Notes under the pieces: model-generated
The model's database searches: none
What the model was told of the DNA's origin: nothing
Seen by the model: the letters and a program-made list of their open reading frames with translations, nothing else
Part shown: positions 18,203 to 51,230 of the stretch, piece by piece
Numbering within the stretch: the first letter of the stretch is position 1
Layout: every line of letters begins with the position of its first letter
DNA from: an uncultured archaeon
GTDB lineage: Archaea; Thermoproteota; EX4484-205; JAAOZP01
NCBI GenBank assembly: GCA_938045545.1
Contig: CALIBN010000016.1
Span: 1-64,000, forward strand
Reading direction: 5' to 3'
Length of the DNA: 64,000 bases
Made by a program: the position numbers and the translations under genes

Positions 18203-18311
18203 TGGGGGCGCTGGGATTTGAACCCAGGTTTCCCTCGTAGCGGGGCTCTCTCACGCAACCTTTCTCGTGGGCCCGAGCCACGGAGCCTCGACCAAGCTAG
18301 CAGACGCCCCC
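18203..18311 (-). tRNA. tRNA-Pro(CGG) with ~30-33 nt intronic insert in the variable region
   Basis: GGGGGCG/CGCCCCC acceptor; CGTGG-CTCGGGC-CCACG anticodon arm; CTGGG-TTCAAAT-CCCAG T arm; 38 nt between anticodon and T stems. Confidence 0.85.
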
Positions 18312-18660
18312 ATCAGGCCTTTTTTATTCCTTGTAATTTAAAAAGATTTTGTTAATCCCACAGATGGTTTACGAGCCATGGAGCCTACAAAGTTAGCCGG
18401 TTTTCACCATTTAGACCAGCCCGTCGCAGCCTGCCTAATCCCAGCGTCTTTAAAAGTATTTCCGAAAGACGAGTTTACCACATTCCCCGAGCAGACCCGT
18501 TGGGATGGGCTTTAAGCATTAGACCGTTTTATCAGATCGGATTATCCTCGTGAAGACACGGGGCGCCGCGGTTAACAGCCCTCTTAACATGGTAATTGGA
18601 GGATTAGTGTGCAGCATTAAGTTAAAATAGTTTTACCTCATTGTGCAGAATATCATTAAG

Positions 18661-20553
18661 ATGGAGGAGGAAAGCAAGGGTTTCAAAACGTTGAGCGACA
18701 TCTTTAAAGCATTAGGATTTCCAGTGCGGGTTGAAATACTAAAAATACTGGAGAGGAACCCGCTTAGATACAGTGAGCTGATGAAGACCGTTAGGCTTGA
18801 CAGGTTCAGCGACGCCGGGAAGTTCGCATATCATTTGAGCAAGCTTATGGAGAACGGCCTCGTTGAGTATAAGCCTGAGAGCAAGATATACGTGATAACT
18901 CCGCTCGGCAAGGATGTTCTGAACCACGCTATGAATCTTTTCGAGTCGCTCAGAAGGAAGGAGAATGTGTTACTCGTTAGGAGAACAGACTCCTCCATTG
19001 AGCTTTTCGATAGGAAAAGGATTGAAGAGTGTCTAGTCAGGGAGGCTGGGATGGATCAGGATACTGCAGAAACAATAGCCTTGGAGATAGAGGAGAGACT
19101 ATATTCTCTTGGAGTGAAGTATCTGACGGCGCCGTTGATCAGGGAGTATGTTAACGCCGTCCTCCTTGAAAAGAAGATGGAAAACTATAGGCACAGGTTG
19201 ACGAGGCTCGGGTTGCCAGTGCACGATGTGTCTGAACTGATATCTGTTAAGCGGGGACTTGACGATGTTGTGAACGAGGCTGGCGAAGAGGTTTTGAGAC
19301 AGTACGCTTTTCTCGTCAAGCTTCCGAGGGAATTGGGTGATGCGCATCTCAGTGGAATGGTCAATATTAATCATTTAGCCAGTTTCATGTTTAAGCCTGA
19401 AGAGCCTGTAAACTCTCTGGAAAGCCTAAGCCTTGTGAAAACCTACTCCTACATTCCTTTTTCCAGTGGCCAGTCTCCGCTTAAGCAAGTCGCGTGGAGG
19501 ATTGTCGAAGCGTTCAGCAGCTCCTCTATGCATGCTAACAGCCTTCTCGTAAACACGGATGATCTTGAGCTTGTAGAAGAGTTTTTAAAAAGCATTGCAA
19601 TAAGCCAGCGGAAGTGGAATGTTATCTTAAGCGCGAAGCTGGAATCCGTTGTTTTTGAGATCTTAAGAAGTCTTGCTGAAATAGCTGAGAAAACGGTTTT
19701 GCCCAATTTTTCTCTTTCACTAGTCGGCTATGATAAGAAGGTTTCTGAAGAGGGTTTTGCAAACACTTTAACAAAGTTTTTAAACGCGGGGGGTGCCCTT
19801 ATATTGGCTGGTTCTCAAAACTCGTGTCCAACCCACCATCTTACTGTTTTGAACGAAGACGCTGACAACTATGTTAGAACCGGTGTCTTGAGCTCGGTAA
19901 GCCTGAACCTGCCGCGTATTCTCGAGAACGCTTCTCTGAACGAGGATGCTTTCTGGGAAAACCTTGGCGAGATTGTGAGCAGGATTGTCGAGGCTTTAGA
20001 GCTTAAAAGGGAGAGCTTGAGAAGCATTATAGAAGACAGGAAGCTCCTTCCACTATCCTGCAGGATTAACGGTGAAACATACTTCCTAGTTGAGAAAGGC
20101 TGCTCAATAATAGAGTTGACAGGGCTTTATGATGCTTCCTGCAGACTTGTCGGCTCTCAGGATGCTTCAGCCAGTTTCCCGGAGGCTGAGAAGATTGTTA
20201 AAAAGGTGAACGAGCTTGCCCATAAGTCTTCCAAGAGGGAAAACAGGGTGCTAGTCAGCCTTGTAAGCCACGAGGAGGCTGTGCAGAGGTTTGGAGGAAC
20301 CCGTGTGAACGTGTTCCCGAGAAACATGACTTTTGAAGAATGGTTTAGGTTTGAATCCAGGCTTAAGAGCCTCACTCCTGAGTCTAACATTATCCACCTG
20401 CAGGGTTTAGAGGAGCTTGGAAGCCTTAGGAAAGCGGGCAGGGCCAGTTTCCTAATGTATTCTCCGAAAACAATGTGTGCGAGCTGCGGGAGGATATATC
20501 CTGCTTCTGAAGAAAAGTGCTTCTGCGGATCATATTTAAGAACTGCTTTCTAG
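18661..20553 (+). CDS. ArsR-type wHTH + ATP-cone + degenerate NrdD-like domain fusion
   Basis: IFKALGFPVRVEILKIL HTH; VRRTDSSIELFDRKRI ATP cone; DAHLSGMVNINHL and SVSLNLPRI NrdD-like motifs; C-terminal Zn ribbon. Confidence 0.8.
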   Translation: MEEESKGFKTLSDIFKALGFPVRVEILKILERNPLRYSELMKTVRLDRFSDAGKFAYHLSKLMENGLVEYKPESKIYVITPLGKDVLNHAMNLFESLRRKENVLLVRRTDSSIELFDRKRIEECLVREAGMDQDTAETIALEIEERLYSLGVKYLTAPLIREYVNAVLLEKKMENYRHRLTRLGLPVHDVSELISVKRGLDDVVNEAGEEVLRQYAFLVKLPRELGDAHLSGMVNINHLASFMFKPEEPVNSLESLSLVKTYSYIPFSSGQSPLKQVAWRIVEAFSSSSMHANSLLVNTDDLELVEEFLKSIAISQRKWNVILSAKLESVVFEILRSLAEIAEKTVLPNFSLSLVGYDKKVSEEGFANTLTKFLNAGGALILAGSQNSCPTHHLTVLNEDADNYVRTGVLSSVSLNLPRILENASLNEDAFWENLGEIVSRIVEALELKRESLRSIIEDRKLLPLSCRINGETYFLVEKGCSIIELTGLYDASCRLVGSQDASASFPEAEKIVKKVNELAHKSSKRENRVLVSLVSHEEAVQRFGGTRVNVFPRNMTFEEWFRFESRLKSLTPESNIIHLQGLEELGSLRKAGRASFLMYSPKTMCASCGRIYPASEEKCFCGSYLRTAF

Positions 20554-20593
20554 ATGGAGAAAAATTTAATAGTGGGGTTCTCGTCCTTCTTCC

Positions 20594-20731
20594 GGTTACC
20601 GGCCATAGGAGCTGTGGAAACACCCGTACAGGGGGAACCCGCGGAGCCGTTCCGAACACGGAAGTTAAACACAGCTCCGTTTCAAACATTAGTGTGGTCT
20701 TCGGCCACGCGAGGTTTGAAAGCCGGTAACC
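20594..20731 (+). rRNA. rrf: 5S rRNA (138 nt including a 17-nt insertion)
   Basis: Terminal helix GGTTACCGGC/GCCGGTAACC; GGCCATAG and CCGAACACGGAAGTTAA 5S signatures. Confidence 0.93.
20630..20646 (+). other. Putative BHB (HBh') intron in 5S rRNA
   Basis: CCGT-AC|A-GGG-GGAA-CCC-GCGG-AG|C; removal gives a 121-nt 5S with canonical CCCGTACCCGTTCCGAAC. Confidence 0.8.
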
Positions 20732-20816
20732 ATCCTTCGATTTGTTAATTAACCATAAAATTTTCATTAAAGGCTTAAATATTCTCCGGCTGGAAAAACC
20801 AGCGGCGTAAAGATAG

Positions 20817-21920
20817 ATGCAAACACCATTATTCCTCGGGCAGGACAACACGGACATCGGCTACATAATTAACGTACTTTACATAGCGATGTTTCTAGTG
20901 CTAGTTTTCTGGGGTGAGAAAATACAGACGAGGATTCGGCTCCGAGACATCGAGTATGCTCTTGAAAGACTACGCCTAATGAGAGATGAGTCGGTTAAAT
21001 TCACTAAGGAGAAGCTGAAGAAATACGGCAGAGAGGAGATAAACAGATTCTTGGATAACTATCTCGAATTCGTAACCATTCCCCCGGTCGACATGGATCC
21101 AGCCGGCGTGGTTTGGAAGCTCGACCATATAGTTAAGACTGCTGAGGACAGGGTTAGGGGCGAGATAAAGCAGATAATCCCAGATCTTGATGAAAGCCAT
21201 GTTTTAAACATAATGAACCTTTTCGAAGCATCCTATGCTTTAAACTATTATTATAAGGTTGTGAGGCACTACTATATTCTAAGCAAGAAGACTTCAAGCT
21301 ACATCCTGATAATACAGTTGCAGGCTATTCTCCCGCAGGTGATGATGGAAGCAGAAGCATACTTAGGGGCGCTGCAAGCGTTTTCAAGCGGCCAGCCGAT
21401 TGGCGACGGGGCGGGAGCGCTTGTCGCAGCCCGACTTATGAGGGGCGGCGAGATATTCGATATTGAGAGGGATAACGTGTACACTGTTAAGAACATTCAG
21501 GGGAGAAGAATATACTTCATGAAGGCAAAGGGCCCGGGAGGGGCTGTGGGCACCCCGGGAGATGCTCTCATGAAGCTCAGTGAAAAAGAGAGCTTCAAAA
21601 TGATATTTATGGTTGACGCGGGGCTCAAGCTGGAGGGTGAGAAAACAGGAAGCATTGCTGAAGGGGTTGGAGCAATCATCGGTGGAATAGGGACTGAAAA
21701 ATACAAGATTGAGGAGGTTGCAACTAAGAAGGCGATCCCCCTCTACGGAATGATTATAAAAATGTCTTTGAAAGAGGCTATCACGCCCATGACTAAGGAC
21801 GTTCTTAACGGCGTCGAAGAGGCTCATCAGCTTCTTTTAAAGAGAATAGTTGAGAAGTCTTCGGAAGGAGATACGGTGATGGTAATAGGGGTTGGTAACA
21901 CTATGGGCATCGCTCAGTAG
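20817..21920 (+). CDS. DUF1512-family protein
   Basis: PVDMDPAG, GQPIGDG, DAGLKLEGEKTG and IGVGNTMGIAQ motifs. Confidence 0.85.
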   Translation: MQTPLFLGQDNTDIGYIINVLYIAMFLVLVFWGEKIQTRIRLRDIEYALERLRLMRDESVKFTKEKLKKYGREEINRFLDNYLEFVTIPPVDMDPAGVVWKLDHIVKTAEDRVRGEIKQIIPDLDESHVLNIMNLFEASYALNYYYKVVRHYYILSKKTSSYILIIQLQAILPQVMMEAEAYLGALQAFSSGQPIGDGAGALVAARLMRGGEIFDIERDNVYTVKNIQGRRIYFMKAKGPGGAVGTPGDALMKLSEKESFKMIFMVDAGLKLEGEKTGSIAEGVGAIIGGIGTEKYKIEEVATKKAIPLYGMIIKMSLKEAITPMTKDVLNGVEEAHQLLLKRIVEKSSEGDTVMVIGVGNTMGIAQ

Positions 21921-21924
21921 GAGG

Positions 21925-22359
21925 GTGAGTGCATTGGAGAAAAGCCCGGTTAGTCTTCTCGTCCCATTCTACTTCTTTCTACTCGGCCTACTAATTCTTT
22001 TTTCACTAATCCTTCTTGTTCAAGGGGTCACGGGTACAGGCAGGAATGACAGTGTTACCAACATGCTTTTCATAATGACTGGTTTAACCGGTCTGGTTTC
22101 AACATTCTACATGATAAGAAGATACCAGCTTAGCATGCAGAAAATGCTGAAGGAGAGGAAAATAGTTGTTTTAACCGTTGAAGAATGTTCCAAATGCAGC
22201 TACAAGGCCGTTAGGCCTTTCCGCGAGGGAGACTACGTTTACGGATATGGTGAGGAGTGTCCCAGGTGTCCCAAGAGTTTAGGCGACACGGGTGTTGAAA
22301 ACAGAATGGTGATTACAGCTATATACTTAGAGGGGGGGCGTCAAGAGGAGCGTTACTAA
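21925..22359 (+). CDS. Membrane protein with C-terminal Zn ribbon
   Basis: Two TM helices; CSKC...RPFREGDYV...CPRC. Confidence 0.7.
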   Translation: MSALEKSPVSLLVPFYFFLLGLLILFSLILLVQGVTGTGRNDSVTNMLFIMTGLTGLVSTFYMIRRYQLSMQKMLKERKIVVLTVEECSKCSYKAVRPFREGDYVYGYGEECPRCPKSLGDTGVENRMVITAIYLEGGRQEERY

Positions 22360-23267
22360 CCCGTTTCCGAAGTCAGGTTTACAGCGGAGTCCTCAAGTAT
22401 TAGAAAAGTATCCTCGGCCTGCGCAATTTTCCTCCCACTTCTCTCAACCAGAACCGGGTATGAAATCAGGTTTTTCCCTAAGTCTTCAATAATCCTGTTG
22501 AAGATGCTTCCGCCAGCATCCTTGAAGATGCTTGAAAACCATCTTTCGCAGAAGGGAAGTGTTCTGAACAAGCTCTGCATCCTCCCCACCTGATTGCTGA
22601 ACCCTCCCTTGTAGTCTAGGGGGAAGTGTTTGAAACGATATATGTAGACATGTCCAGCCTCGCTGACCTCGCCCAAACCGTCGGCAAGCGTTACGAACGG
22701 CTCTATTGCTACAACCATGTCTCTCCTAAGTTTCTCCATGTTGAAAGTTTTAAGATTCGGGATTGAGAGCCCTGCGTGAAGGTTGAAACGGTCTATCTGG
22801 TGGCCGGTTAGGTTTCTTATCACTCTGAAGCCCCTCGACTTGACGACGCTTTCAACCGCCTCACCGATCTGGTTGATTTTAACACCGCTCCTCAGCACTC
22901 CGGATGCTTTTTCAAGACTTTTCTCAGCAGCCTCAACAATCTCCCTGTCCCCCTGCGAGAGAGGTATTGTGAACGCGGTGTCAACAATGCAGCCGTCAAC
23001 GTGGACACCCAGATCCACTTTAACCAGCGAACCTTGAGGAATCTCGCCTTCAAAATCGGGGGGCGGGGTGAAGTGAGCTGCGACCTCGTCTAAACCTATG
23101 TTGCACGGGAAAGCCGGTAGGCCGCCGAGCTGCCTTATGCGACCCTCAATTTCTTCGCAAAGGTCGACGAGCCTTACCCCAGCCTTAACGCGTTGACGCG
23201 CCTCCTTCTTAACCCTTTTCGCGATCTCGCCTGCTGCAAAGTATTTCTCTTTCTCCTCCTCGTTCAA
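22356..23267 (-). CDS. map: Type II methionine aminopeptidase
   Basis: AFPCN, AAHFTP, KVDLGVHVDGCIVDTA, NLTGH and AIEPF motifs; start set at TTG 23267. Confidence 0.93.
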   Translation of the reverse strand: MNEEEKEKYFAAGEIAKRVKKEARQRVKAGVRLVDLCEEIEGRIRQLGGLPAFPCNIGLDEVAAHFTPPPDFEGEIPQGSLVKVDLGVHVDGCIVDTAFTIPLSQGDREIVEAAEKSLEKASGVLRSGVKINQIGEAVESVVKSRGFRVIRNLTGHQIDRFNLHAGLSIPNLKTFNMEKLRRDMVVAIEPFVTLADGLGEVSEAGHVYIYRFKHFPLDYKGGFSNQVGRMQSLFRTLPFCERWFSSIFKDAGGSIFNRIIEDLGKNLISYPVLVERSGRKIAQAEDTFLILEDSAVNLTSETG

Positions 23268-23342
23268 CAGCCGGCTTCCAATTCTGGGGAAAGGCTTTAA
23301 ATGGGTTTCCAAGTCTCCTAAGCCATTGTTAAGAGGAAGACT

Positions 23343-23783
23343 GTGATACTGGGCGGCACTTTCGACAGGTTTCACAGGGGGCATATGCTCCTCCTAGGGC
23401 TGGCAGCAGCACTTGGGAGGAGTATAATCGTCGGAGTCACATCAGACGAGTTTGCAGGCAGCAAGCCCCACAGGGTTGAGCCTTTCTCCGAGCGCTTCGA
23501 GAAGGTTTCAGGTTTTCTAAGGAGCATCGGGTGTAGGGGGTTCAGTATTTTGAAGCTGGATGACTATGCTGGCCCAGCGGCAACCTTAGATGGGGGATCC
23601 CTTCTAGTGACCTTTAACACTTTAAAAAATGGCCTGCTTATAAATAGGGTTAGGGTTGAAAAAGGCCTGCCTCCTCTAGAGATTCTTATAGCACCCCTCC
23701 TAGAGGCTGAGGATTCTGCACCGATATCCAGCACCAGGGTTAGAATGGGAGAGATTGATGAGAAGGGGTTTTTAAACCGTTAA
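23343..23783 (+). CDS. coaD: Phosphopantetheine adenylyltransferase (archaeal type)
   Basis: GGTFDRFHRGH and ISSTRVRMGEID motifs. Confidence 0.88.
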   Translation: MILGGTFDRFHRGHMLLLGLAAALGRSIIVGVTSDEFAGSKPHRVEPFSERFEKVSGFLRSIGCRGFSILKLDDYAGPAATLDGGSLLVTFNTLKNGLLINRVRVEKGLPPLEILIAPLLEAEDSAPISSTRVRMGEIDEKGFLNR

Positions 23784-23812
23784 AGCTTAAAAGCAACGGG
23801 CATTCCTCCTAA

Positions 23813-23957
23813 CCTAGCCGTCCGAAAGCGGATCTAACCGAGCATAGGGCTTAAGCTCTGCTGTGAGGGAGGAGGACCCAGGGCGGCGAAACAGCAGAGC
23901 TCGGTTAAAGAGGCCTTAGAGCATGCGTTAGGCATGCTGTGAAAAAGGACGTCAGGC
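23813..23957 (+). ncRNA. Candidate structured small RNA
   Basis: TATA-like box ~25 nt upstream; nested stems CGTCC/GGACG, AACCGA/TCGGTT, GCTCTGCTGT/ACAGCAGAGC and AGCATGC/GCATGCT. Confidence 0.4.
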
Positions 23958-23962
23958 CGAGC

Positions 23963-24391
23963 TTAAAAAACCTCCTGCTCGGTTTTGCTCGTGATAAAAC
24001 TGGGTATGCCTTCAACATCCTTAGCGGAGCCGCCTAGAGCCTGTTTAAGCCTATACTTATACTCTGTGTTAACCCTTACTCGCCCTGAGCAGATCTTCCT
24101 TATTTTCACGCTGTGCGACCTTCCCCTCCTGTCGAAATCTGTTAGGACAACTATTTCCGAAAGCTTTTCCTTCTCAAGCCAGTCTGTGGATGCAAGCCTG
24201 ATGAAGCTTCTAAGAGTCATTATCTTGGCTTTAACCCCGAGTTTAACCAGCGCCTGCCTGTCCTTTACACCCTCAACCACTATGAGCAGTCCCGCGTCGC
24301 CGAGGTTCAGCTCCTGAATAATCCTGCCTATTGTTTCTGCTGAAGCAGTGTCGCGCCTGCTCCCTGTCTTCCCAAGCCTGGGCAATAGCAC
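23963..24391 (-). CDS. Small Toprim-domain protein
   Basis: IVVEGVKD and LTDFDRRG motifs. Confidence 0.85.
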   Translation of the reverse strand: MLLPRLGKTGSRRDTASAETIGRIIQELNLGDAGLLIVVEGVKDRQALVKLGVKAKIMTLRSFIRLASTDWLEKEKLSEIVVLTDFDRRGRSHSVKIRKICSGRVRVNTEYKYRLKQALGGSAKDVEGIPSFITSKTEQEVF

Positions 24392-24510
24392 TCGCTTTGG
24401 TCAAAGCAGTCCGGGATAAAAAGTTTAAATCCCCTTTAAAGGCTTAGGATGACAGTGATGCTTAATGAGGTTAGTGAAAGCATGCTTATCCGTAGTGGCA
24501 AGGAGGCTTG

Positions 24511-25703
24511 ATGGAAATGGGGTCTGAACAGCCCCCGCCGATTACGAAGTACGTGATTAGGGTGGAGTTTGAAGTCGAGGGGGTTGTGGAGAGAATCTTC
24601 TTCAAAAGGGAAGGTTCCCGCATAAACACGATATTATAGGAGCCATATTCGGACAGACTGAAGGTCTGTTCGGAGACACCCTCGACTTGAAGAAACTCCA
24701 GAAGAGTGGCAAGCTTGGAAGAATAGACGTTGATCTGAAGAAGGAGGATAAGAAGACCGTTGGAAACGTGACTATCCCTAATAATCTTGATCAGCCTACT
24801 GCAGCGCTTCTAGCGGCGACGCTGGAAAGCATAGAGAGGGTTGGACCTTACGACGCCTGGTTTAAACTAGTTAGCGTTGAAGACATGAGGGAAGAGAAGA
24901 GGAGGAGGATCATGGAGAGAGCGAAGGACATTATGCAGAGATGGTCAGCCTCCCAGAGGAGCGAAGTAATACAGATGATAAGCCAGGTTAGTGAGGTCAG
25001 TGACGTTGGCAAAATAGTTAGTCTCGCTGCCGATGTTGAAGGCGGGCCTGAGGCTGAGTCGAGTGAAACACTGTTCATCGTTGAGGGCCGAGCTGATTTA
25101 ACCACTCTTATGAAGGCGGGCGTTAAGAACGTGGTTGCGACCAACGGTGTGAACATTTCCCAGTATGTGGTTAACCTGACCCATAAGAAGAAGGAGGTTA
25201 CAGTTCTGGCTGACGGCGACAGGGTTGGCGACATGATTGTGAAAGAGCTTCTGAGAAGAGGGGCGAAAATAGACTACGTAGGCAAGGCTCCTCAAGGGAG
25301 GGAGGTTGAGGAGATGAAGCCTATTGAAATCCTAGACATGATAAGCAGGAGGGTTGACGTTAAGACTTATCTCGCAACCTTGCAGGCGACGGCTAAGCCG
25401 GCTGCCCCGGAAAACCTTCTGAACGTTATGAAGACGCTTAGGGACAGGGTGAAGGAGTCCTTCACCGCGATTCTTCTAGACGATGAGGGAGAGATTATGG
25501 ACGAGGTCCCTGTGAGCCAGCTTTTCGAAAGGCTGAGTGAGCTTGACAACGTTGCCGGAGTTATTTTCGACGGTATTGTTTCCCAAAGGCTTCTCGACCT
25601 TGCTCAAAGCAAGAATGTGAAAATCATGGTCGGCGAGAGAATAGGCATCGTGGAGAAGATGCCTAGAGAGATAGTTGTCAAGACCCTCGACGAATTAAAA
25701 TAG
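24511..25703 (+). CDS. dnaG: Archaeal DnaG (exosome-associated primase-like); two exons 24511..24591 and 24624..25703, 386 aa spliced
   Basis: AGGAGG RBS; exon 1 KYVIRVEFEVEGVVE; exon 2 KHDIIGAIFGQTEGL...IVEGRAD...DGDRVG. Confidence 0.93.
24592..24623 (+). other. Putative BHB mRNA intron in dnaG (32 nt)
   Basis: GTT-GTGG-AG|A-GAATCTTCTT-CAAAA-GGGAAGGTTC-CCGC-AT|A-AAC: complete hBHBh' motif whose cut sites restore the frame. Confidence 0.88.
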
Positions 25704-25747
25704 TTTAAGCCGCACGCTAGAAGCCAGCCTGAGCTAGGTTTCCGGGT

Positions 25748-26251
25748 TTACTCCAGCAGCTCGCGATTAAGATCTAAGAAGGAACTGCCCCATTTGAATT
25801 TTGAAAGAATGCTCAACGCCTGCTCTGGGAAACCAAGTATGAAGAGGGCTGCAGCCAGTGCCTCCGCGCTTGAGAGAATGTTTGGAGCACCGTAGTTAAC
25901 AGGGTTCGCCGCCAGCAGCCTGGGCAGCCTCCTCTGGAATGGTGCTTTAAGAAGATGGAAGACACTATTGTCTGTGGATTTCCAAGAGGTGTCTATAACT
26001 GTCACCCCATGTTTAACCGCAACATCCCTGTCTACTGGTGAAAGCGTTGTCAAAGCCTCAGGGTTTAAAATTATCGAGCGCTTCGGAACCTGAGATATTT
26101 TGGAGAAAACCTTAATCAGGCCGTGCTTCTTCAAGACAAGGGTTGTGCACTTCCTCGGGTCATCCGCGTGCAGATGGAGAGCGTAGAGGCAGGGGGGATG
26201 TTGAGAGTAACCCCTTTTCTGTTCGAGACGGGATTCGACTAAGCGGCCCAC
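25748..26251 (-). CDS. tsr3: 16S rRNA aminocarboxypropyltransferase Tsr3 (start uncertain)
   Basis: DDPRKCT, IDTSW and RRLPRLLAANPVNYG...LSSAEALAAAL...FKWG motifs. Confidence 0.9.
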   Translation of the reverse strand: MGRLVESRLEQKRGYSQHPPCLYALHLHADDPRKCTTLVLKKHGLIKVFSKISQVPKRSIILNPEALTTLSPVDRDVAVKHGVTVIDTSWKSTDNSVFHLLKAPFQRRLPRLLAANPVNYGAPNILSSAEALAAALFILGFPEQALSILSKFKWGSSFLDLNRELLE

Positions 26252-26496
26252 CTGGCCATCATGCGGGTTACTCATCTGGCCTGTTTGGCCTTGCTTGCCG
26301 CAGGCTGAGCCCGTTTCACACCCACTCCGAGGGTCGTCAGCGTTCTTCATCCACATTCCTCCCGGATGGGTTCCGTTTCTGTCCCAGCCTAGGGGTCTCC
26401 CCCTGCGCCTCACGACGCTGCAGCACCCGCATCAAGAAGGGAGTTTCCTCAGGCCCTCTTCGAGCCCGACACCCGTCCTTCAACTTCCCCCCTGCC
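26188..26496 (-). ncRNA. rnpB: RNase P RNA
   Basis: P1 GGCAGGGGGGA/TCCCCCCTGCC; GAGGAAACTCC and AACAGAAAAGGGGTTA conserved regions; TTTAAA promoter upstream. Confidence 0.92.
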
Positions 26497-26532
26497 TGAA
26501 GCATAGTGTCAAATAACGTTTAAAAAATTTTT

Positions 26533-29700
<3,168 letters not shown>

Positions 29701-29762
29701 CACAGCCCAAAATTATTGGGCTCATGCATTCGCCTAAGCGTTAAGCTTAGGGTCATTACAAC

Positions 29763-31352
<1,590 letters not shown>

Positions 31353-32636: not shown

Positions 32637-32723
32637 TGGACCGGGAGGGACTCGAACCCTCGACCCTTCGAGGTCACCCATTCCGAGTGCAAGTCGGACA
32701 TTCTACCACTGAACTACCGGCCC
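32637..32723 (-). tRNA. tRNA-Ala(TGC) with 15-nt intron at 44/45 (32666..32680)
   Basis: G3:U70 pair; BHB TCGG-AA|T-GG-GTGA-CC-TCGA-AG|G restores the AGGTC variable loop. Confidence 0.92.
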
Positions 32724-33194: not shown

Positions 33195-36100
33195 ATGAGA
33201 ATGCGTATTGCGCACGGCCCTTTGAAGTGTGGGAAGTCATGCCGCAGGTGCGATTACCTTAAGCTCGGGTTATGCGCTGGATGCCACCTTCCCAAGAGGA
33301 ACCTCTGCTTGGCTTACCAGTGCATCGTAGGAAGGTTAGAATCATGGGAATAACCCTCAGATGTAGGGCCTGCCCGCTTGCCCCGGCTTGCGTAAAGTCC
33401 GGCAGGTTCACCCCGCGCGCGCGATAGCGAGAACGTGACGAAGGTTGAGGAGAAAGGTGTGCACAGCTTCCTCGAGTACGATGGTCAAATACTGCTCTCA
33501 ACCATAATGCCGGACAAGCTCCTAACCGAGGAAACCTTCAACTTCACCGTAAGCTTTGTGAAGAAAGGGGGCTTCGACGGAGTAGTCGGGTGGGACATGC
33601 CCGTTTACGCTGACTATCCCAAGGCATTAAACCTATCCAATTTGGTTAAGGCTACGCTCCTGACGATGAGGTATGTGGAGGAGGGGATACCAACAATACC
33701 ATTGTTGAAAGGCGGAGACTCTTCTGAGATAGCGCTTCACGCCGAGTGGTTGGAGAAAATAGGCTTCAAGAGGATTGGGCTCCACGCCACTGAGTATATT
33801 CTAGCTAGAACTCGTGGCGGCATTGGGATTTATGGAGACTTAGCTAAAGTCGCCAACAACCTCTACTCACTGGTGCTGGTGAAAATATACGAGATTGGAG
33901 CGAAGCCACTGATAATGGGAGCCTTAAGCCCCAGGGGCCTCCGCGACTACCACGAGTCCGTGGAGAGATCTCTCTAGCGGGAATGTCTTGGCTAATAGAG
34001 GCTAGGAAGTGGCGTGCTTACGTGGGCACATCCTCTGGCCTGGGCATCGTAGACCTAGGGAGGGGCATCATGGAGTGTAAGTGCAAGGCATGTTTAGGCA
34101 AGTCTCCGAGTCAGGTCGTTGAAAACCAGGATGACATAGCGTGGCATAACTTGGTCCTGCTCAAGGAGTATGCGGAGAAGGGTAAGCTTGATGAAACGCC
34201 TGTTTACAACATGATACTGGGGAAGGATGATACCTTGGCGGTTGTGGGGGATCTGCACATAGGCATCTCCCAATCCCTTTGGCTGCCGTGTTTGAGGATG
34301 CTTAGGAAAATCCACCCAACCCACCTGGTTCTCCTAGGGGACGTGTTCGACTTCATAAGGGGGAAGCCGGAAGCATCGCAAGTCATTAGCTTCCTCAATC
34401 TCCTGAAAAACCTAAACGTCCGCATAGGATACGTATCAGGATGCTCGGATTCATACGCCTCCAGGTTTCTAGAGGCTCTGGCGAGGCTCGCATTTACGGA
34501 GGGGCCGAGGGAACCCCAGCTCTACAATCCACAACTAACGCTGGTGGAGGCAATGAGGATTCCTCCCTGCTGATGATGACGGGAGACCTGTCGGAGGAGG
34601 AGAAGCAAGAAATAGAGGAACATATGAAGGAGGAGCGTGAGGAGCATGAGGTAGTAACGTCCAATAGGTTCGTCCTTCTGCAAGGACCTGGGGAAGAAGA
34701 GGAGGAAAAGGAGGAAGTAACTCCTCTAACGCTCGACTGGGAGATAAGGGAGATTGAGGCACTGGCCGAGGGGTATCCTCAGATGATCGAGAAGCTGGAG
34801 AATCTGGAAGAGGTATTGAACGAGGAGGAGAAGAGACAGGAGGAACTACTTAGGGAGGAGTTGTTCGAAAGTATTGCGAGGAAGTTGAGGAGGAGGCGGA
34901 ATCAGAAACTCCTCTTGAAAGACTGTTTAAAGAAGCTGAGGAACTGGCGGGAATCAAAGAGGTTGGGAAGCAGGTTGAAAAACCTCTTGAAAAGCCTGTG
35001 GAATACGAGAAACCCGAAGAGACGCATTATGAAGAGCCCGTAGAAGAGCTCGATATCCTAAAGGAAGAATTCGAAAAGCTAATGGGAGGAGAAGAACCTG
35101 TTGAAGAAATCGCCGAGGGCTTCGAAGAGGCTTGTGGAGAAGAGCTGGAGGAGAAAGTCGAGCTGATTGAGGAAGTTGAGGAAGAAGCCGGTGAGTTAAT
35201 TGAAGAGGTTGTTGAGGAGGAGCTGGAGGAAAGGGCTGAGCTAGTTGAGGAGGCTAGAGAAGAAGTTGAGGAAGTGGTTGAGGAGGTAGCCGAGGAAGCT
35301 GGAGAATTTGTTGAGGAAACTGCTGAGAAAGTTGTTGAGGAGGTTGGGAGAGAGGAAGAAGCCGAAGAGAAAGAGGAGTTGCTTGAAGAAGAAATTGGAG
35401 AGACTGCCGAAGAAGTCGTTGAGGAAGTCGAGGAAGTCGGTGAGTTAATTGAAGAGATTGAAAAAGAACCTGAGGAAGGGGCTAAAGAAGAGATTACAGA
35501 ATACGAGAAACCTAAGGAAGAGTTAGAAGGACACCGGAGGCAGTGGCTGCAGGAGAAGGGGAGGGGCCTGAGAAGGAAGAGGTCGAGAAGATTGTTGAAG
35601 AAAAACTGAGGAAGTAATCGTTGATAGGTTTGAAAGAACGATATTCAAGTCCGGCCATATAGAGCGTCACGGGGAGTTTGAAAAAGGCCTTTACTTGATC
35701 AGAGTAAAGACAAAAGATGGAAAAATCTTCGAGTGGTCAACTAGGAAGGATAAAAAAGACAATGCCCTTAACACTTGAGTTCCTGGGGAATTCTTAAAGG
35801 AACTAGTTGGAAAGAATGTGGAGATTACTATCGTCAAATACAATTACTTACTGCACTTTCAAAAGGTTCGAACTTCTACTTCTGTCCAAGAGAGGGGCTT
35901 ATTGTAGAGGGAAAGAAGATAGAATTAGAAAAGGTCGAGCCACTGAGCTGGAGTGAGAGGCATGGAGCATCTATGATGGTCAAGCTGGTGAAGAAAAGCA
36001 TGCAGGGCGCCGAAATATACCTCGCATTCTTTGAGGACGGAGAAGTTAGTATAGTCCTCAGCAAAGAATCTTCTATATATGGAACTATGTTTAGGGTTAC

Positions 36101-36650: not shown

Positions 36651-36662
36651 AATAGATAGGAA

Positions 36663-37493: not shown

Positions 37494-37594
37494 GGCCGCC
37501 GCCGCGATTTGAACGCGGAATCAGTGGCTCCACAGGCCACCGCGTTAACCTGGTTTAGCGGTGGTTTTTAGCACGCACATACGCCACAGCGGCC
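37494..37594 (-). tRNA. tRNA-His(GTG), encoded G-1, 25-nt D-loop intron at 14/15 (37555..37579)
   Basis: GTGGC-CTGTGGA-GCCAC anticodon arm; HBh' GGCG-TA|T-GTG...CAC-CGCT-AA|A. Confidence 0.9.
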
Positions 37595-37935: not shown

Positions 37936-38027
37936 GCCTCGGTAACTCAGCCTGGTAGAGTGGCAGCCTTGTAAGCGGAAAAGGCTGAGAAAGCTGTTAG
38001 GCGAGGGTTCGAATCCCTCCCGAGGCT
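37936..38027 (+). tRNA. tRNA-Thr(TGT) with canonical 37/38 intron (37974..37991)
   Basis: CTTG-TA|A-GC...GC-TGAG-AA|A BHB; full cloverleaf. Confidence 0.92.
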
Positions 38028-38890: not shown

Positions 38891-38983
38891 AGCCCCAGGT
38901 GGGCTTCGAACCCACGCCCTCCTCCATTGACGCTTTTCCAGCATTACCAAGGAGGCGCTCTAACCAGGCTGAGCTACTGGGGC
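38891..38983 (-). tRNA. tRNA-Thr(GGT) with 18-nt intron, best fit at 38/39 (38926..38943)
   Basis: CCTCC/GGAGG stem; TGGT-AA|T-GC...GC-GTCA-AT|G motif. Confidence 0.9.
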
Positions 38984-39601: not shown

Positions 39602-39605
39602 AGAG

Positions 39606-42298: not shown

Positions 42299-42928
42299 GT
42301 GATAAAGATGAGCCCGTTATTCGGCAGGAAGCCTCAACCGCCCCCGCAACCAGCGGACCAGCATGCATTTCAAGACGCCTTGAGGGAAGCAGTTGCAATG
42401 CTTAAGATTCAGGAGCAGAATCTCGACAGGATATACCACAGGATTAAGATGAGAGACGAGCAGCTTTTCAAAGAAGTCGAGAAGGCTCTTGTTGAACGAG
42501 ATAATTCCCGCGCCCAAGTTTATGCGAACGAGGTTGCTCAGGTAAGGAAGATGGGTAAGATAATTCTTAGCAACAGGCTTGCACTTGAAAGAGTAATACT
42601 TAGGCTTGAAGATACTATAGACTTTAAGGAGACTCTGAAGATCCTTGGACCGGTTGTTAACGTAGTAAACAGGGTTGGAAACGAGATAAGGAATGTTGCT
42701 CCACAAGTTGCAGACAGTCTCAGACAAGTAGAGGACATGATGAACAGGGTGCTTATACAGGCTGGCGAGGTCACAGGCTACGAGACATATATTGCGCCCG
42801 ACAGCGAGGCAGACCAGATTTTGAAGGAAGCATCCATCCTGGCTTCTCAGAAAATGAAATCAAGCTTCCCAGAGATACCTGAGGCTGTTAGACAACACAT
42901 GGAAGAAACCGGTTCCCGGACTCAGTAA
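42299..42928 (+). CDS. ESCRT-III paralog (CdvB1/B2-like, no wH)
   Basis: RAQVYANEVAQVRKM...LERVILRLE; EADQILKEA...FPEIP. Confidence 0.85.
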   Translation: MIKMSPLFGRKPQPPPQPADQHAFQDALREAVAMLKIQEQNLDRIYHRIKMRDEQLFKEVEKALVERDNSRAQVYANEVAQVRKMGKIILSNRLALERVILRLEDTIDFKETLKILGPVVNVVNRVGNEIRNVAPQVADSLRQVEDMMNRVLIQAGEVTGYETYIAPDSEADQILKEASILASQKMKSSFPEIPEAVRQHMEETGSRTQ

Positions 42929-43122
42929 GCTTAATGATTTCACATCAGCTCTTTGAAAACTAGTCGACCATCAGGGGGCTTGCGCAGTTTTTTTAAAAAC
43001 CATTGGAATTGGCCGTCTTAGAGGTTTAAATACTGGAATGCTCATCATCCTAATTCCTAAAGGGCTGGCGCTGTTGAGGAAACCGATAAATAGACACTCG
43101 TGAGAGAAACAGGGTCGTTCAG

Positions 43123-43419
43123 ATGAGTGGAAAAGTAGTTGTTTCAAAAGAGGAGGTTCTGCATTACGCTAAGCTCTGCAAGATCTCTCTGACCGAGGCT
43201 GACGTGGAAAGGCTCCAGAAAGATGTTAACGAGATACTAGAGTATTTCAACATTGTGAGAAGCCTGCAGCTGGATGTTGAGCCAATGGTGTATGTGACTG
43301 GTTTCAGCGAAGCCCTGAGGGAAGACGAGCCGGCTGAAACCCTTTCAGAGGATGATGTTTTTAAGAATGCTGGAGAGAAGGATGAGAAATGGTTTGTGTC
43401 GGGCCAAGTGTTAGGTTAA
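43123..43419 (+). CDS. gatC: Amidotransferase subunit C
   Basis: EVLHYAKLCKI...ILEYF...LREDEP; upstream of gatA. Confidence 0.88.
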   Translation: MSGKVVVSKEEVLHYAKLCKISLTEADVERLQKDVNEILEYFNIVRSLQLDVEPMVYVTGFSEALREDEPAETLSEDDVFKNAGEKDEKWFVSGQVLG

Positions 43420-44840: not shown

Positions 44841-44881
44841 CTTGGGAAAGGGTTAAAAACTTTTTCAACATTGCTCCGGGG

Positions 44882-45985
44882 ATGAACCGGAAAACCCAGA
44901 TGCTGCTAATTCCTGGTCCAATAACACTGCCAGAAAGGGTTTTGAAAGCGATGGCTAAACCCATCGTAAACCATAGGGGGGATGAGTTTCACGCTCTCTA
45001 CGAGAGAATTGAAGAAGGCTTGAGAAATGTTTTCAAGACTGAGAACAACGTCTACATCATAAGTGGCTCTGGAACCGCGGGAGTGGACATGGTTTTCCAG
45101 AACTTCGTGTACGAGGGTGAGAAGGTGCTTATACCGGATTTCGGAGAATTCACGGAGAGGGTTATGGAGAATGCTTTGAAGGTTGGTGCTGAGCCTGTTG
45201 CCGTGAAATCAGAGTGGGGAAGCCTGCCGAGCCTCAGGAATATTGCGGAGGCGGTTGAGAACAATAATGTTGGAAGCATTTTCATAGTGCATAACGAGAC
45301 CTCTACGGGAGTAACTTTCAGAATGATGGAAGAGGTTGCTAACATTGCTAGGAAAGAGGGGATACTGGTTTTCGCAGACACTGTTTCAGACCTGGGTGTT
45401 GAACCCTTCTACACGGATAAGCTGGGTGTTGACGTCTGTGTGACTGCAAGCCAGAAGGGCCTCGGAGGGCCTCCGGGCTTATCCTTCGTCTCAGTGAGCG
45501 GAAAAGCGTTAGATAAGGGTTTAAACAATCCTAGGAGGAGAAGCTTCTATCTGGATGTTGAGAAGATTCACAGGTTCCATCTCAAGAGGGAGACTCCTTT
45601 CACGCCCGCGGTGCCACTGCTATACGGCATGGCTGAAGCGCTTGAAATTTTGAAAGAAGAGGGCTATGAGGAACGGATAAGAAGGCACTCTGAGAATGCT
45701 AGAATGATATATGAATTCTTAGAGTCTGAGAACATTGAGATTTTCCCACGCAATAGAGAATACTGGTCTACAGCGGTAATAGTCTTCAAAAACAGGGGGC
45801 TTAATGCCGACATAATAATCAGGAGGCTGTACGAAGAGTATAGGATACTGATAGCGAGAGGAATGGGTAGGCTGAGGAATGAAACAACCAGAATAGGCAA
45901 CGTAGGCTACGAGGGGAGAGCTGAGATAGAGTATTTCCTAGACTCGTTTAGAAAAGTGTTGAAGGATGCTGGCAGGCAACCTTGA
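44882..45985 (+). CDS. Class V PLP aminotransferase (alanine/serine-glyoxylate type)
   Basis: LIPGP, VHNETSTGV, ASQKGLGGPPG and TPFTP motifs. Confidence 0.9.
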   Translation: MNRKTQMLLIPGPITLPERVLKAMAKPIVNHRGDEFHALYERIEEGLRNVFKTENNVYIISGSGTAGVDMVFQNFVYEGEKVLIPDFGEFTERVMENALKVGAEPVAVKSEWGSLPSLRNIAEAVENNNVGSIFIVHNETSTGVTFRMMEEVANIARKEGILVFADTVSDLGVEPFYTDKLGVDVCVTASQKGLGGPPGLSFVSVSGKALDKGLNNPRRRSFYLDVEKIHRFHLKRETPFTPAVPLLYGMAEALEILKEEGYEERIRRHSENARMIYEFLESENIEIFPRNREYWSTAVIVFKNRGLNADIIIRRLYEEYRILIARGMGRLRNETTRIGNVGYEGRAEIEYFLDSFRKVLKDAGRQP

Positions 45986-46080
45986 TTAAACACGCGTAAC
46001 AAGCATAATTCTCATTTTTAGCATGCGTGTCAAAGAACCAGGGGTAATGCTTAACTACGTTCTCACTAGTCCTTTGAAGC

Positions 46081-48512
46081 GTGATTGACATGGGAACCAT
46101 GTTTTCAGCCGGCCTATTCAAGGTTGAAACGGAAGAATCTGTTTGGAATCTCTCCTCCTCGCAGTGGCCCGGGTTTAAAATAGGATCGTTAACATGCCAC
46201 GTATGCTTAAGTGGGCAGAAGCATTACCCGGAGAAGCTTAGAGTAGAGAGGCTGGATAACGAGGAAGGCTTAAGAATGACTTGGACGTTTAAAAAGGCTG
46301 GTGCGAAAATAGTTCAGAAAATCACTAGCCGTCCGAAACATCTTGAAATAAGCAGCTTCTTCCAAAACCTTTCGACTAGGGCCGCCTGTCTCAGCGAGCT
46401 GACTCTACTCGAATCCGCGGAGCCGGGTGAAACCTCGTTTGGAACAAGACATGGGGAAGCCCGGGTTTACGAGGATGGTGGCTACTGGGGACTTGTCCGA
46501 AAGCTAAGCCGGAGCCCGAAGCCGAGTGGTGAAACGGCGGAGCAGGCTTCAAGCAGCGAGATCCAGGGGTCTTCTCAAGTCTGTTGGGAAGTCTACAACC
46601 CGTTTGACAGAATGGCTTTCTTAGCGGGTTTCCTAACGTTTGAAAGATGGCTAGGCATGGTTGAAACAAAGTTCAAAGCATCACTTGGAGTAATCGGGTG
46701 GAAGATGGGTTTTGACGCTGGCGACGTAATAGTCGACCCCAGGGAGACCGTTAAGCTGGAAGACGTTGCATTCATGCTTGGGCGGGACCCTTGGCTTCTT
46801 CTAGAAGAGTTTGGAAACCTGGTTAAAGAAAGATACTGCATTAGGCCTTTGGAAAGACCTCCGATAAGCTGGTGCAGCTGGTACCCCTTCCGCTTAAGCG
46901 TCAGCGAGGAACGCGTCTTGGATAACGCCAGGATCGGGGCTGAGCGTTTAAAGAGCCTTGGGCTTAAGAATATTCAGGTCGACCTAGGCTGGGAGAAGAA
47001 CCACCTGCCAAGCTCATACGATGAGAACGAGCAGTTCTCCCACGGGTTGAAATGGCTGTCGCAGCAGCTTGAGAAAATGGGTTTCAACCTGGGGGTCTGG
47101 AAGGCTCCTTTCACAATAAGCGAGCTCGACACGGTTGCTGTCAAACACCCGGAGTGGCTTCTTGGAGACGAGAAGGAGAAGCCAGCCCCATACTGGACAT
47201 GGTTCTGGAAGCCGTATGGAAAGGTTTACGCCCTGGATCTTACGCATCCAGGGGCACAGAACTATCTTCGTGAAGAAATAGCTTCAAATACGTCAAATAC
47301 TTCAGGCTCGACTTTATGGGTGGCCCGTGTAACCCGCGTCTACGCAACGGGTACAACCGGAGAATCGTAGCCGGAGGAGGTGTTGAGGCTGCACGACTAG
47401 GATGTAGAATAATCTCTGAAACCCTGAGGAGCATTGACCCGGAGTGCCTAGTGTTGAACTGCAACCCGTATGAGCCTTGCGGCGTAGGGTTTTTCCAGCT
47501 GCTCTACACCTGCAACGACACGGGTAACACCGGATACGTCACTTGGCAGTTTATGAAGGAAAACTATAGGTCTGTCGCGTCCCACCTGTGGAAAAACCAT
47601 AGGTGGGGGATAATCCAGCCCTCCTGTCTCTCCGTCGGCCTACCTGGCACACTTGAGGAGGCAAGGATCGCGCCACGGTAGCATACTTCTCGGGTGGCGA
47701 GATCAGTATTGGCGACAACCTTGCTACTCTGCCTGAAGACAGGTGGCAAGTCTTACTCTCAGTGCTGCCGCCAGCCGGAGCCTCAGCCAAGCCCGTGGAC
47801 CTTTTCGAACCAATTACCGTTGAACAATTGTCGTATGAAGATATGAGCCGCAGCGGTAGCGAGGCCACGGTAGGAAGCATTGAGGAAGACGGGGGGAACA
47901 TCTGGTGCAACAGGTGGAGACTGAATGGGACAGCTGGATCATCGCCAGCCTGTTTGCTTGGGAGCCTCCTAAAACTAAAGAGGGGAGGGAGCACCTGATA
48001 ACCAGGTTCAACATCCCGTGGAGCCTGCTGGGTTTAAACCCTCGCAGGAAATACTGGGTCTACGAGTTCTGGTCAGGCCAGTTCCTAGGGGAAACCCCTC
48101 GACACGTAGGCTGGACGGCTACACACATCCCGGGGACGCTGGGAAACTCCTATGGGATGCCATGGAAGAGTCTCTGAAAGTTACGTTCTTCGGCCTTGCG
48201 GTCAGAGTGTTAGCAATACGGGAAACGCGCCCACACCCTTGGATCGTTGGAACGAGTTTCCATTTAACAAGCGGCGGAGAATTGCGGAACGTAGCCTGGG
48301 ATGAGTCGAAAAAAGTTTTGAAGGGCGAGCTACAGCGGCCACCGGGCCAGCTGGGCTTCATAGTTGCAGCCGGCATCCCTACTAGACAGGTTAGAACCAT
48401 TGTTGACAACCGCCCAGCGATCGCGCTGCCGGGGGCTAATGGCTCCCTAGTAATCCCGATGATTTCCAGCGAGAACCCTTTACTCTGGGAAATACGCTTC
48501 GAAGAACAGTAA
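46081..48512 (+). pseudogene. GH36/GH27-like alpha-galactosidase, multiply frameshifted
   Basis: WCSWY, IQVDLGW, LDLTHP and YFRLDF motifs; indels near 47282, 47670, 47910 and 48100. Confidence 0.8.
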
Positions 48513-48597
48513 GCCAATCCTGTCAGATACTTTAAACGTCGGATGAGTAAGACGGGGCTCGAACGACATTGCATAATGGTGATCTTTCGAATCGCAG

Positions 48598-48622
48598 GTC
48601 GGGGTAGCCGAGCCTGGTAAGG
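48598..48622 (+). repeat. Imperfect copy of a tRNA-Ser 5' end (att-like remnant)
   Basis: GTCGGGGTAGCCGAGCCTGGTAAGG versus GTCGGGGTAGCCAAACCTGGTTAAGG at 51104. Confidence 0.7.
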
Positions 48623-48694
48623 TACAGTCATCTTAAGGTTTTTACAGCATGCTTACGAAGGATGTTTTAAGTTTTAGAAATAAGTTATGCTTAA

Positions 48695-49454
48695 ATGAGC
48701 CTCATGAGCATTAATAATGGGATGGTAAATCCCGAGCTCAGGAAACTTTTCGTCGATTCAATAGAGTACCTTAGAAAAATGGATTTCTTCAAGGATTACT
48801 CAAATCTATCCTCGGAGGAGATTTTCGACAAGATCCTTAGTGGGGAAATAGACTATGGGGACCAGTGGTTCATCGAGGAGTGGCCCGAGGAGGAGCGGAG
48901 GAAATTCAGTACTCAAGGGCAAATCTTGAGGGAGCTACTTAAAGGCGCGAAGAACACTGGATGAAGAAAAGCATTTACGAAGTGGATTTGGAGGTGGCGT
49001 CTTTCGATACCAAGAGGATCTTTATAGAGGATCCTAAGACGGTCGTAAGAAAGGGGATATGTAAGATGTTGCACATGAAGCTCGCGAGGATCTCCAGGGG
49101 AGCTTTCAATTCCAGGTACATTAAGGAGGAGTTGATAGAATGGGAGAAACCCCCTCCGGTGTTGAGGGCGGCGTTGGGGAAATGGTGTTCCCCTACGGTG
49201 GCTTTATCTTCAAGGTATGCTTTGAGTTCGGAGGGAAGGAGCATCTGGCCGAGTTCTACAATAACTGGAAATACCTTTACATGGTCCCGCTCATAGAGAG
49301 GATAAATGAGCTGATCAAGGATACCGGATATCAATATTACGGGTTGCATAATGAGGACATAATCTTAGTTGTCCTAAGGGAAGACGAGGCCGAGAAGCTT
49401 AAAAAGGAGAGGGGTTGGGCACTTTACTTGCCTCAAGTTAAGGCTCATGCTTAG
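48695..49454 (+). pseudogene. Conserved nuclease-partner protein, copy 3 (two frameshifts)
   Basis: NPELRKLFVDSIEYLRKMDFF, KPPPVLRAALGKWC and EAEKLKKERGW segments spread over three frames. Confidence 0.75.
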
Positions 49455-50879
49455 GTTTCTCCACAATGTTCTCTACAGTCTCCTCAATATCGTCTAAGGT
49501 GCATTTAACACCCTCTTTAAACTCAGTCTCGATAATTTTATTCAGGTTCTCAAGGCATATAGCTACCGGAATGCCAAACGCGGCTTCCCATAAATGCTTC
49601 CACTTATCCTCGGTGAAATAATTATTCAGATCTTTCTTTGCTCTGCTTAAGCTACGTTGATAATAATCGGATACGATCGTGGTCTTGACCTCAACTATCG
49701 CTACTCACTTCCCCTTATGGTAAACGTAGAAGTCCGGTCCCTCTGTCTCATATCCCTGGACGACCTTGAGCTCTTCCTTAGGTATTCCGGTCTTCCTAGA
49801 TACTACCTCCTTAACGTCTTCCTCTCGGTAAAATCTTGCATAATCCCAGCCGATTTCCCCAACCGGTCCTTTAACCCTTGGATCGTCTATCGAAAACCCT
49901 TTGTTAATTAGGCCCCCTACATCTTCAACCCTCACCACCAGAACCTTCTCGGGGTCCTCCAGGAATACCTCGTAGCGAGATGCGGCTTCCCCCACCCCCA
50001 TATAGTATTCTATCGTGAGCTTCTTTCTATCCACCTCGTATTTTGTGATTTTAATCCGCCTATATTTGCTGATCATTATCCTTGGAATGTATTCCTTGGA
50101 CTTCCTGTAGACCAGCTTGATTAGGTGCTCCTTACCTTTGTAATCCTTAATCGCGAAGGTGACGGCTGGTCCATGTTCCGATCTGTCGTAATGCGGGTTC
50201 CTCTCCAACGTCAATTTGCAAACCTCCTTCCCATCCACGACCAGCTTATATTCGCCTGAGCTGAATGCGATGTCGAAGGACGCATTCGCTTCCTTAAACA
50301 CGGTTTTAACGAACTCATGGGTGGTGATTTTGACGATCTTTATCTCAACCTCCTCACCACTCCGACCTATGTTGCTTGGAAGGTCGAACTCAAATGTCGG
50401 CCCATATTTCTTGTAAAATGTCCTTCTCTTGACCTCGATTTTCACTCAACATGATTCCCTCCAAGGTACTGCTTGAGTTGTTCGCTGGGTATTCTAATCC
50501 TCAAGTTATCTTTATTCCGCCTAAAAACGCATCTCACCTTAAGGCCCTCCGGGTAATTAGCGAGCTCGCTGGGCTCCTCCCGTGCTGGCTCTCCGCCCTC
50601 CCGCGCGCGCAAGACTCCAGCATCAGGCTTAGCTTGAGATATGCACCCGCCCTTGGGGGGGACGAACCTGCCCGACTTAACGCAGGCCGAGGCGAGCTGG
50701 CAGGCCCTGCATCTAAGAGTTAGCCCCACGATTTTCACCTTTCCTACGATACACTGGTAAACCAGGCATAAATTCCTCCTCGATGAGTGGCATCCAGTGC
50801 ATAATCCGAGCCTAAGGTAATCGCATTTGCGACAAGGCTTTCCGCACTTGAGGGGCCCGTGCGCGACTTGCATTCTCAT
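49438..50879 (-). pseudogene. Internally deleted cassette B gene: Cys-rich N-terminus joined to PD-(D/E)XK nuclease tip
   Basis: MRMQVAHGPLKCGKPCRKC homologous to 33195 onward; PDFYVYHKGK*VAIVEVKTT with premature TGA at 49705-49707. Confidence 0.75.
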
Positions 50880-51103
50880 GAACTCATCACCTTTTCTTTA
50901 AAAGTTTTAAAAAGCATGGGAAAATACACTAGGTATCGTCGGAAAGGGATTCGCCTCATCTAGGGTCTTTATAGAGTCGCCCAGCCTTCGTGGTTTCAGG
51001 TCGCCATTCTTACCACTGAGAGGGTCTCGTCGTACCTCAGGTATTTTTTTATAAACGAGGAGTAAAAGCTTTATTTGGCCTCTGCATCAACCTTACTTTA
51101 GAC

Positions 51104-51230
51104 GTCGGGGTAGCCAAACCTGGTTAAGGCGCGAGATGCGCGATGTACGCGAGCCTGCTAAGCTCGTGGCCCATGAGAGTTCCATGATGGAACCACGAGG
51201 GCCGTGCGGGTTCAAATCCCGCCCCCGACG
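51104..51230 (+). tRNA. tRNA-Ser(GCT) with two introns: 30/31 (51136..51153) and variable arm (51178..51199)
   Basis: CGCG-AG|A-TGC...GTA-CGCG-AG|C and CATG-AG|A-GTTCCA...TGGAAC-CACG-AG|G motifs; spliced product folds normally. Confidence 0.88.

Follow-up and report, generated by a model that had tools for sequence, protein, structure and literature searches.

Short bulge-helix-bulge (BHB) introns are known in archaeal 16S and 23S rRNA genes (Thermoproteales). Another short intron, in the cbf5 pre-mRNA of Crenarchaeota, is reportedly treated further by Watanabe in 2002 and Yoshinari in 2006. It has been described from Desulfurococcales and Sulfolobales (Yokobori 2009, PMC2738675), and in Haloferax volcanii HVO_1309 a BHB intron lies in the 5' untranslated region (UTR) of an EndA-processed mRNA, the enzyme being of the alpha2 type (PMC7714728; PMC10485636). 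For archaeal mRNAs spliced by EndA, reviews, in their accessible parts (the sources cited in this text were accessible in part), give no cases besides cbf5 and HVO_1309 and anticipate further ones (PMC10485636; PMC7714728). Non-canonical or multiple tRNA introns affect 70% of tRNAs in Thermoproteales and 92-95% in Atabeyarchaeia and Freyarchaeia (PMC11291895; bioRxiv 10.64898/2026.10.13.758758), and an Asgard preprint of 2026 leaves open how such introns arise and vanish (bioRxiv 10.64898/2026.10.13.758758). The stretch analysed here, called the window, comprises 64,000 nt (positions 1-64000 of contig CALIBN010000016.1, coded G000:C16, G000 being its assembly) and holds nine BHB-bounded inserts, all of 14-32 nt, in six tRNA genes, the 5S rRNA gene and the protein-coding gene dnaG. 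All nine are very probably protein-spliced BHB introns, cut by EndA and joined by RtcB.

dnaG and 5S are new hosts for a known splicing system; a literature search, largely without subscription journals and without supplements, turned up no report of introns in dnaG, in 5S rRNA or in Brockarchaeota. The source genome groups with Candidatus (Ca.) Brockarchaeota, the DnaG of the window being 77-98% identical to that of 14 genomes, several of them Ca. Brockarchaeota. Like the cbf5 intron of Crenarchaeota (PMC2738675), the dnaG intron is short, lacks an open reading frame (ORF), lies in a coding region of an (alpha-beta)2 host, varies in length and appears to be precisely lost in some lineages, but it differs in host gene, in its phase 0 position, in its strict hBHBh' form and in its long inner stem. 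The HVO_1309 intron lies in a leader, not in a coding region, and is served by an alpha2 enzyme. With the 16S and 23S BHB introns the 5S intron shares an rRNA host and the EndA mechanism, whereas here 16S and 23S are uninterrupted. A class-wide dnaG intron would be a second coding-region case, and 5S a new rRNA host. The tRNA introns resemble those of Thermoproteales and Asgard archaea in their high load, their D-loop, V-loop and T-loop positions and the occurrence of two per gene, and those of Thermoproteales in families common to several isotypes. They differ in belonging to a further lineage, with about 82% of loci affected, and tRNA introns of Brockarchaeota are not mentioned in the accessible parts of PMC11291895 or 10.64898/2026.10.13.758758.

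The RNA genes of the window were placed with Rfam and a script (seven tRNAs, 5S, RNase P, 23S and 16S). Excision at the BHB cut sites restores the hosts, namely a 384-aa DnaG frame, a 120-nt 5S and tRNA cloverleaves, that of tRNA-Pro only partly. A first-pass annotation of this DNA had listed at least nine short introns in tRNA, rRNA and mRNA, with six of seven tRNAs interrupted, and all nine were found at the positions that it named, Ser(TGA) at 11352 being the sole uninterrupted tRNA. It was also right to call the inserts ORF-less: at 14-32 nt there is no room for an ORF or a ribozyme core, and no Rfam intron family was found in the window, which together exclude a mobile intron with a homing endonuclease and group I or group II introns. 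Its other descriptions held in part. The lengths, given as 15-32 nt, begin at 14 nt with the Pro intron. The shared geometry of a 4-bp helix with 3-nt bulges applies to the central helix, which has four of four pairs in eight inserts and three of four in the Ser variable-arm intron, but both flanking helices reach at least 2 bp in just four of the nine, the other five being relaxed forms. As for starting with A and ending in AG, six inserts do the former, five the latter and four both; the dnaG insert ends in AT in this genome. Finally, the inserts are mostly unrelated in sequence within the window (2 of 45 pairs are more similar than shuffles), but not genome-wide, where a 31-nt D-loop family recurs in three isotypes.

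Comparisons were made with a class of 26 genomes in four families (f1-f4), which are mutually related, and counts across them and shuffle tests are not independent. In dnaG, the annotated ORF covers the DnaG model only from position 38, and the missing N-terminus is found in the upstream frame. The spliced exons encode 384 aa, whereas the unspliced reading ends after 40 codons, at a stop at 24637. DnaG was matched in 23 of the 26 class genomes, from all four families; each of the 23 has an insert at the identical codon boundary, and a homology alignment blind to BHB structure gave the same boundaries. Its length is 32 nt in ten genomes, 29 nt in four, 18 and 24 nt in two each and 19, 21, 23, 30 and 41 nt in one each, spanning all three phases, and each of the six in-frame versions contains stops. 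All pairs of the central helix form in 21 of the 23 genomes (19 of 20 distinct introns). The 20 distinct introns come from the 30 of 34 loci that could be parsed, and their inner stems measure 3-11 bp and differ in sequence; shuffled inserts match this geometry with p<=0.006 for each of the 20, which are related sequences. Close metagenome dnaG loci carry the intron in 11 of 11 cases, partly redundant, a twelfth (30% identical) having been excluded. Outside the class, among the 150 listed of 297 DnaG matches, all begin at model position 1, without stops or insert. Of ten genomes from lower-scoring families, eight were continuous over the site, another gave a stop-free match to 1-270, and the tenth was ended by the contig end. 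Being common to all four families, the dnaG intron is old. Archaeal DnaG is an exosome subunit whose K6 and Y7 are required for RNA binding (PMC4227792); the KY motif in exon 1 would correspond to these residues, and because it lies there, full-length DnaG would need splicing. In the outgroup G161, dnaG is uninterrupted at the site and has no ATG, GTG or TTG upstream of the conserved N-terminus, pointing to an unusual start codon or a sequence error. A small divergent Toprim-only gene beside dnaG (window 23963-24391, minus strand) is not a second DnaG.

The 5S gene was matched in 24 of the 26 class genomes. An insert of 17-20 nt is present at the site seen in the window in 15 of them (12 in f1, three in f4), seven have none, and two f2 genomes (G001, G002) carry 18-20 nt with matching geometry ten bases downstream, at a second site that is independent of the first. 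Presence and absence follow exact boundaries, and the spliced length of 120 nt equals that of intron-free relatives. In all 13 distinct inserts at the first site, the last four bases are invariant and paired to exon 1, and a central 4-bp helix with 3-nt bulges is formed; the inner stem varies on both sides together, that is, with compensation. For each of these 13 related sequences, shuffling reproduces the geometry with p<=0.0035.

The tRNA genes of the whole genome gave 50 Rfam matches, of which two bacterial-looking genes and four fragments were excluded and 44 parsed; up to three of the 44 may be foreign. Among them, 36 score better once a BHB segment is removed, seven are intact, and one is unparsed but visibly interrupted. 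The custom cloverleaf score behind these figures was used solely for the interrupted-gene count, its boundaries being wrong for the second call in Thr GGT and for Lys TTT, Tyr, Gln CTG, Arg CCT and Ile. In the window, the automatic parse of the Ser(GCT) variable arm chose a 27-nt alternative instead of the 22-nt intron. A relaxed ARAGORN run allowing long introns returned 506 genes, mostly false, and was dropped. One 31-nt D-loop intron family, spotted by eye, is shared by Phe, Met/Ile and Lys tRNAs, so that similar introns occur across isotypes of one genome, as in Thermoproteales. The position of the Pro intron varies among species of one genus. In G012, the whole Pro insert stands in both Pro(CGG) and Pro(TGG); in its place, an intron in the anticodon loop is found in most of the remaining f1 genomes. 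Past the window, tRNA-Asn(GTT) at G000:C16:88430-88546 has apparent D-loop and T-loop introns, the gene having been missed by the Rfam search.

Table 1. RNA genes, dnaG and their inserts in the window
Feature	Positions	Strand	Details
tRNA-Ser(TGA)	11352..11436	+	uninterrupted; seventh window tRNA
tRNA-Pro(CGG)	18203..18311	-	34-nt variable-region insert
Remainder of Pro insert	18230..18249	-	20 nt; hairpin-like, not resolved as BHB intron
Pro(CGG) intron 45/46	18250..18263	-	14 nt; central helix 4/4, flanking helix nearly nil
5S rRNA gene	20595..20731	+	single match in assembly
5S intron	20630..20646	+	17 nt; HBh', loop C
dnaG exon 1	24517..24591	+	25 codons; conserved N-terminal KY motif; second ATG at 24511
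dnaG intron	24592..24623	+	32 nt; strict hBHBh' (4-bp helix, 10-bp inner stem, 3-bp outer helix); frame-breaking
dnaG exon 2	24624..25703	+	
RNase P RNA, 23S and 16S genes	26196..31302	-	no intron-sized insert (negative control)
tRNA-Ala(TGC)	32637..32723	-	15-nt intron 44/45 at 32666-32680
tRNA-His(GTG)	37494..37594	-	25-nt intron 14/15 at 37555-37579
tRNA-Thr(TGT)	37936..38027	+	18-nt intron 37/38 at 37974-37991
tRNA-Thr(GGT)	38891..38983	-	18-nt intron 38/39 at 38926-38943
tRNA-Ser(GCT)	51104..51230	+	two introns: 30/31, 18 nt, 51136-51153; variable arm, 22 nt, 51178-51199

Two EndA genes are present in the genome, on contigs C40 and C42, encoding 187 and 200 aa. The 187-aa protein matches the A. 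pernix alpha subunit 3p1z_B (E=5e-46); its residues corresponding to K44, Y125 and H133 are conserved, as is the Crenarchaea-specific loop. The 200-aa protein lacks the catalytic His. EndA is thus, as judged from its residues, of the (alpha-beta)2 type with the loop that confers broad specificity on such enzymes (PMC5829648), and the broad-specificity endonuclease assumed in the first-pass annotation gained support from this subunit typing. RtcB occurs in 19 of the 26 class genomes, including the source genome, where it lies inside a 984-aa frame that probably includes an intein. From the positions and geometry of the inserts, the restored hosts, their conservation and the presence of these enzymes, we infer cutting by EndA and splicing of the dnaG mRNA. 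The precursor would fold the 4-bp helix with its 3-nt bulges, (alpha-beta)2 EndA would cleave each bulge behind its second base, and RtcB would ligate the exons. With so relaxed an enzyme, an insert in an abundant stable RNA would cost the cell almost nothing, and introns of tRNA and 5S genes could be gained, copied and lost within a genus, while in mRNA only a few old introns would remain (dnaG, cbf5 and probably the rtcB leader).

Three sequencing runs with small shares of the dnaG region (X1, X2 and X3) were compared as contigs over 11000-26560. X3 was treated as RNA because of its strong RNase P excess, that bin reaching 2,900-fold, against about 10 elsewhere. In an X3 contig, the 12 nt that close 5S exon 1 abut 20647, which is the joined form, and those 12 nt differ in the three intron-free f1 genomes; the contig is suggestive of 5S exon joining, but not proof. 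X1 and X2 omit exactly 24592-24623 (depth 63 and 35; one 2,865-nt contig crosses). They look like DNA of a relative of about 90% identity after precise loss of the dnaG intron, and the 32-nt skip therefore confirms the dnaG boundaries, not splicing. A dnaG joint was not seen in X3, but its contigs may not span the site, which makes this no evidence either way.

A genome-wide scan for BHB structure, as proposed in the first-pass annotation, returned counts equal to those of mirror geometry and no excess over wrong-bulge geometry; since the motif by itself is no commoner than its controls, the argument for introns depends on the restored hosts and their conservation. Several observations weigh against splicing. 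The fold at the dnaG junction is not better than shuffles (z=-1.6), no RNA record crosses that junction in X1-X3, and X1 and X2 have flat depth, with RNase P not raised and the 5S intron kept. The predicted fold of the 5S precursor retains native helix III, not the BHB, and the X3 record of joined 5S is a single contig of depth 5 whose 12-nt side lies within a back-joint. The 20 nt at 18230-18249 in tRNA-Pro yield no BHB by one- or two-step removal; G014 has them too, as does each of the two Pro genes of G012.

These points leave room for other explanations of single inserts. That in 5S might be a retained expansion of loop C, never removed, since in the predicted fold it forms a side hairpin that leaves the native helices undisturbed, and the window's insert lacks an outer helix. 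Haloarchaea are known to keep large insertions in their 5S. However, each of the 13 distinct inserts pairs its four invariant bases with exon 1, a pairing that the mature fold lacks, and the second site of matching geometry and the joined form in X3 also speak for removal, so that retention is unlikely. For dnaG, a programmed frameshift or read-through hairpin is suggested by the 10-bp hairpin near the 5' end of the coding region, and no spliced dnaG RNA was seen in the runs. Against such recoding, which is highly improbable, the offset is not constant: lengths fall in phases 0, 1 and 2 at one site, in-frame versions contain stops, and a natural form without exactly these bases exists in X1 and X2; the variable phase excludes it. 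The presence of some foreign contigs in the assembly, and of other broken ORFs in the window, could also raise the suspicion of an assembly error or a decayed dnaG pseudogene. This is hardly credible for a single-copy gene with both exons conserved across 23 genomes and the insert found in independent assemblies, and conservation excludes decay.

Outside the window, a 13-nt cbf5 intron lies in the catalytic Asp codon (G000:C10:59570-59582, minus strand). cbf5 was matched in 24 class genomes; 23 of them have this intron, at 13-16 nt, and one gave an unreadable locus. The intron's position is that of the published site (PMC2738675). cbf5 is broken at this site in G161 and in four of the five other Thermoproteota families sampled; the intron is thus old and common to other classes too, and the copy in the source genome widens the reported Desulfurococcales and Sulfolobales range. 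Just upstream of rtcB, an hBH motif (G000:C12:90342-90356, minus strand; 13-17 nt with an outer helix of 8-10 bp in f1 genomes) occurs in all 12 f1 genomes read (three were skipped) and in none of four from f3 and f4. The rtcB leader probably holds a candidate BHB intron, for which the HVO_1309 5' UTR intron is a model.

Further mRNA introns were sought by homology. ORFs from 2.0 of the 2.15 Mb of G161 were compared with 1,090 loci, the intron state being called blind to BHB, and 17 frame-breaking inserts with some BHB support were obtained against 17 in mirror geometry, only dnaG being strong. In 763 trials with planted inserts, the screen recovered 53%, and 20% near gene ends. About half of introns would thus escape, and a few more in mRNA are possible. 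cbf5 was missed in this screen because G161 has the same intron. A shared-intron screen of 1,106 loci (G161 plus 0.4 of the 1.8 Mb of the within-class genome G004, with rRNA shadow frames filtered) gave five true against seven mirror loci; a score above 50 on both sides was reached by cbf5 and dnaG alone. A strict structure-only list of non-coding BHBs had the rtcB leader and dnaG on top, with 10 true and 10 mirror cases overall. A coding-model join test was rejected (361 true against 347 mirror candidates, mainly gene-to-gene junctions). The glyA, carB, hypD and uppS genes of the source genome are intact, 16S and 23S have no insert above 5 nt relative to G161, and the 312-nt signal recognition particle (SRP) RNA has none of intron size.

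An active genome-wide invasion, with introns spreading into many protein genes, would fit the 36 interrupted loci among 44 parsed tRNAs, the intron families common to several isotypes, the differences in Pro and 5S introns inside one genus and the limited recovery of planted inserts. It is nonetheless quite improbable, given the mirror-level counts of both homology screens and of the strict list, the four intact genes and the age of the dnaG and cbf5 introns. The first-pass annotation had read the window in this way. Its extension of introns beyond tRNA is borne out by 5S and dnaG and, outside the window, by cbf5 and probably the rtcB leader; active gain agrees with tRNA and 5S introns that turn over within one genus, but a recent spread into mRNA is not supported. 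Nor is its expectation of many more split genes: the search for short inserts in conserved proteins that it suggested gave, over about 1,100 coding loci and at a sensitivity of about 53%, only dnaG and the known cbf5. A heavy tRNA intron load does not entail many mRNA introns, and presence/absence variants among close relatives are a natural test of intron gain and loss. In these genomes, annotation therefore gives shortened DnaG and Cbf5 and overlooks or mislabels 5S and tRNA genes.

The genes dnaG, cbf5 and rtcB all act in RNA metabolism. Tentatively, and with rather low confidence, a feedback circuit can be proposed for Brockarchaeota, in which EndA and RtcB activity would gate the supply of the dnaG, cbf5 and rtcB products that mature or degrade the interrupted tRNAs and 5S. 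If true, a prokaryote would have a regulon controlled by splicing, beside 5S rRNA as a new spliced host. The location of the mRNA introns in genes acting on RNA may reflect regulation, or only where introns survive and show.

Other irregularities were noted in the assembly. At window positions 930-10054 and 33435-35609 lies a series of partial or family-less ORFs, such as a split PEP-utilising enzyme and a partial oxidoreductase. Joins of these broken ORFs showed no strong BHB in the coding-model join test or the homology screen, and the ORFs probably represent decay. Contigs C20, C32, C36, C41 and C49 of G000 look foreign, with bacterial-type tRNAs, duplicate isoacceptors and a second rRNA set, and a second cbf5, with a 36-nt intron, is found among these foreign-looking contigs.

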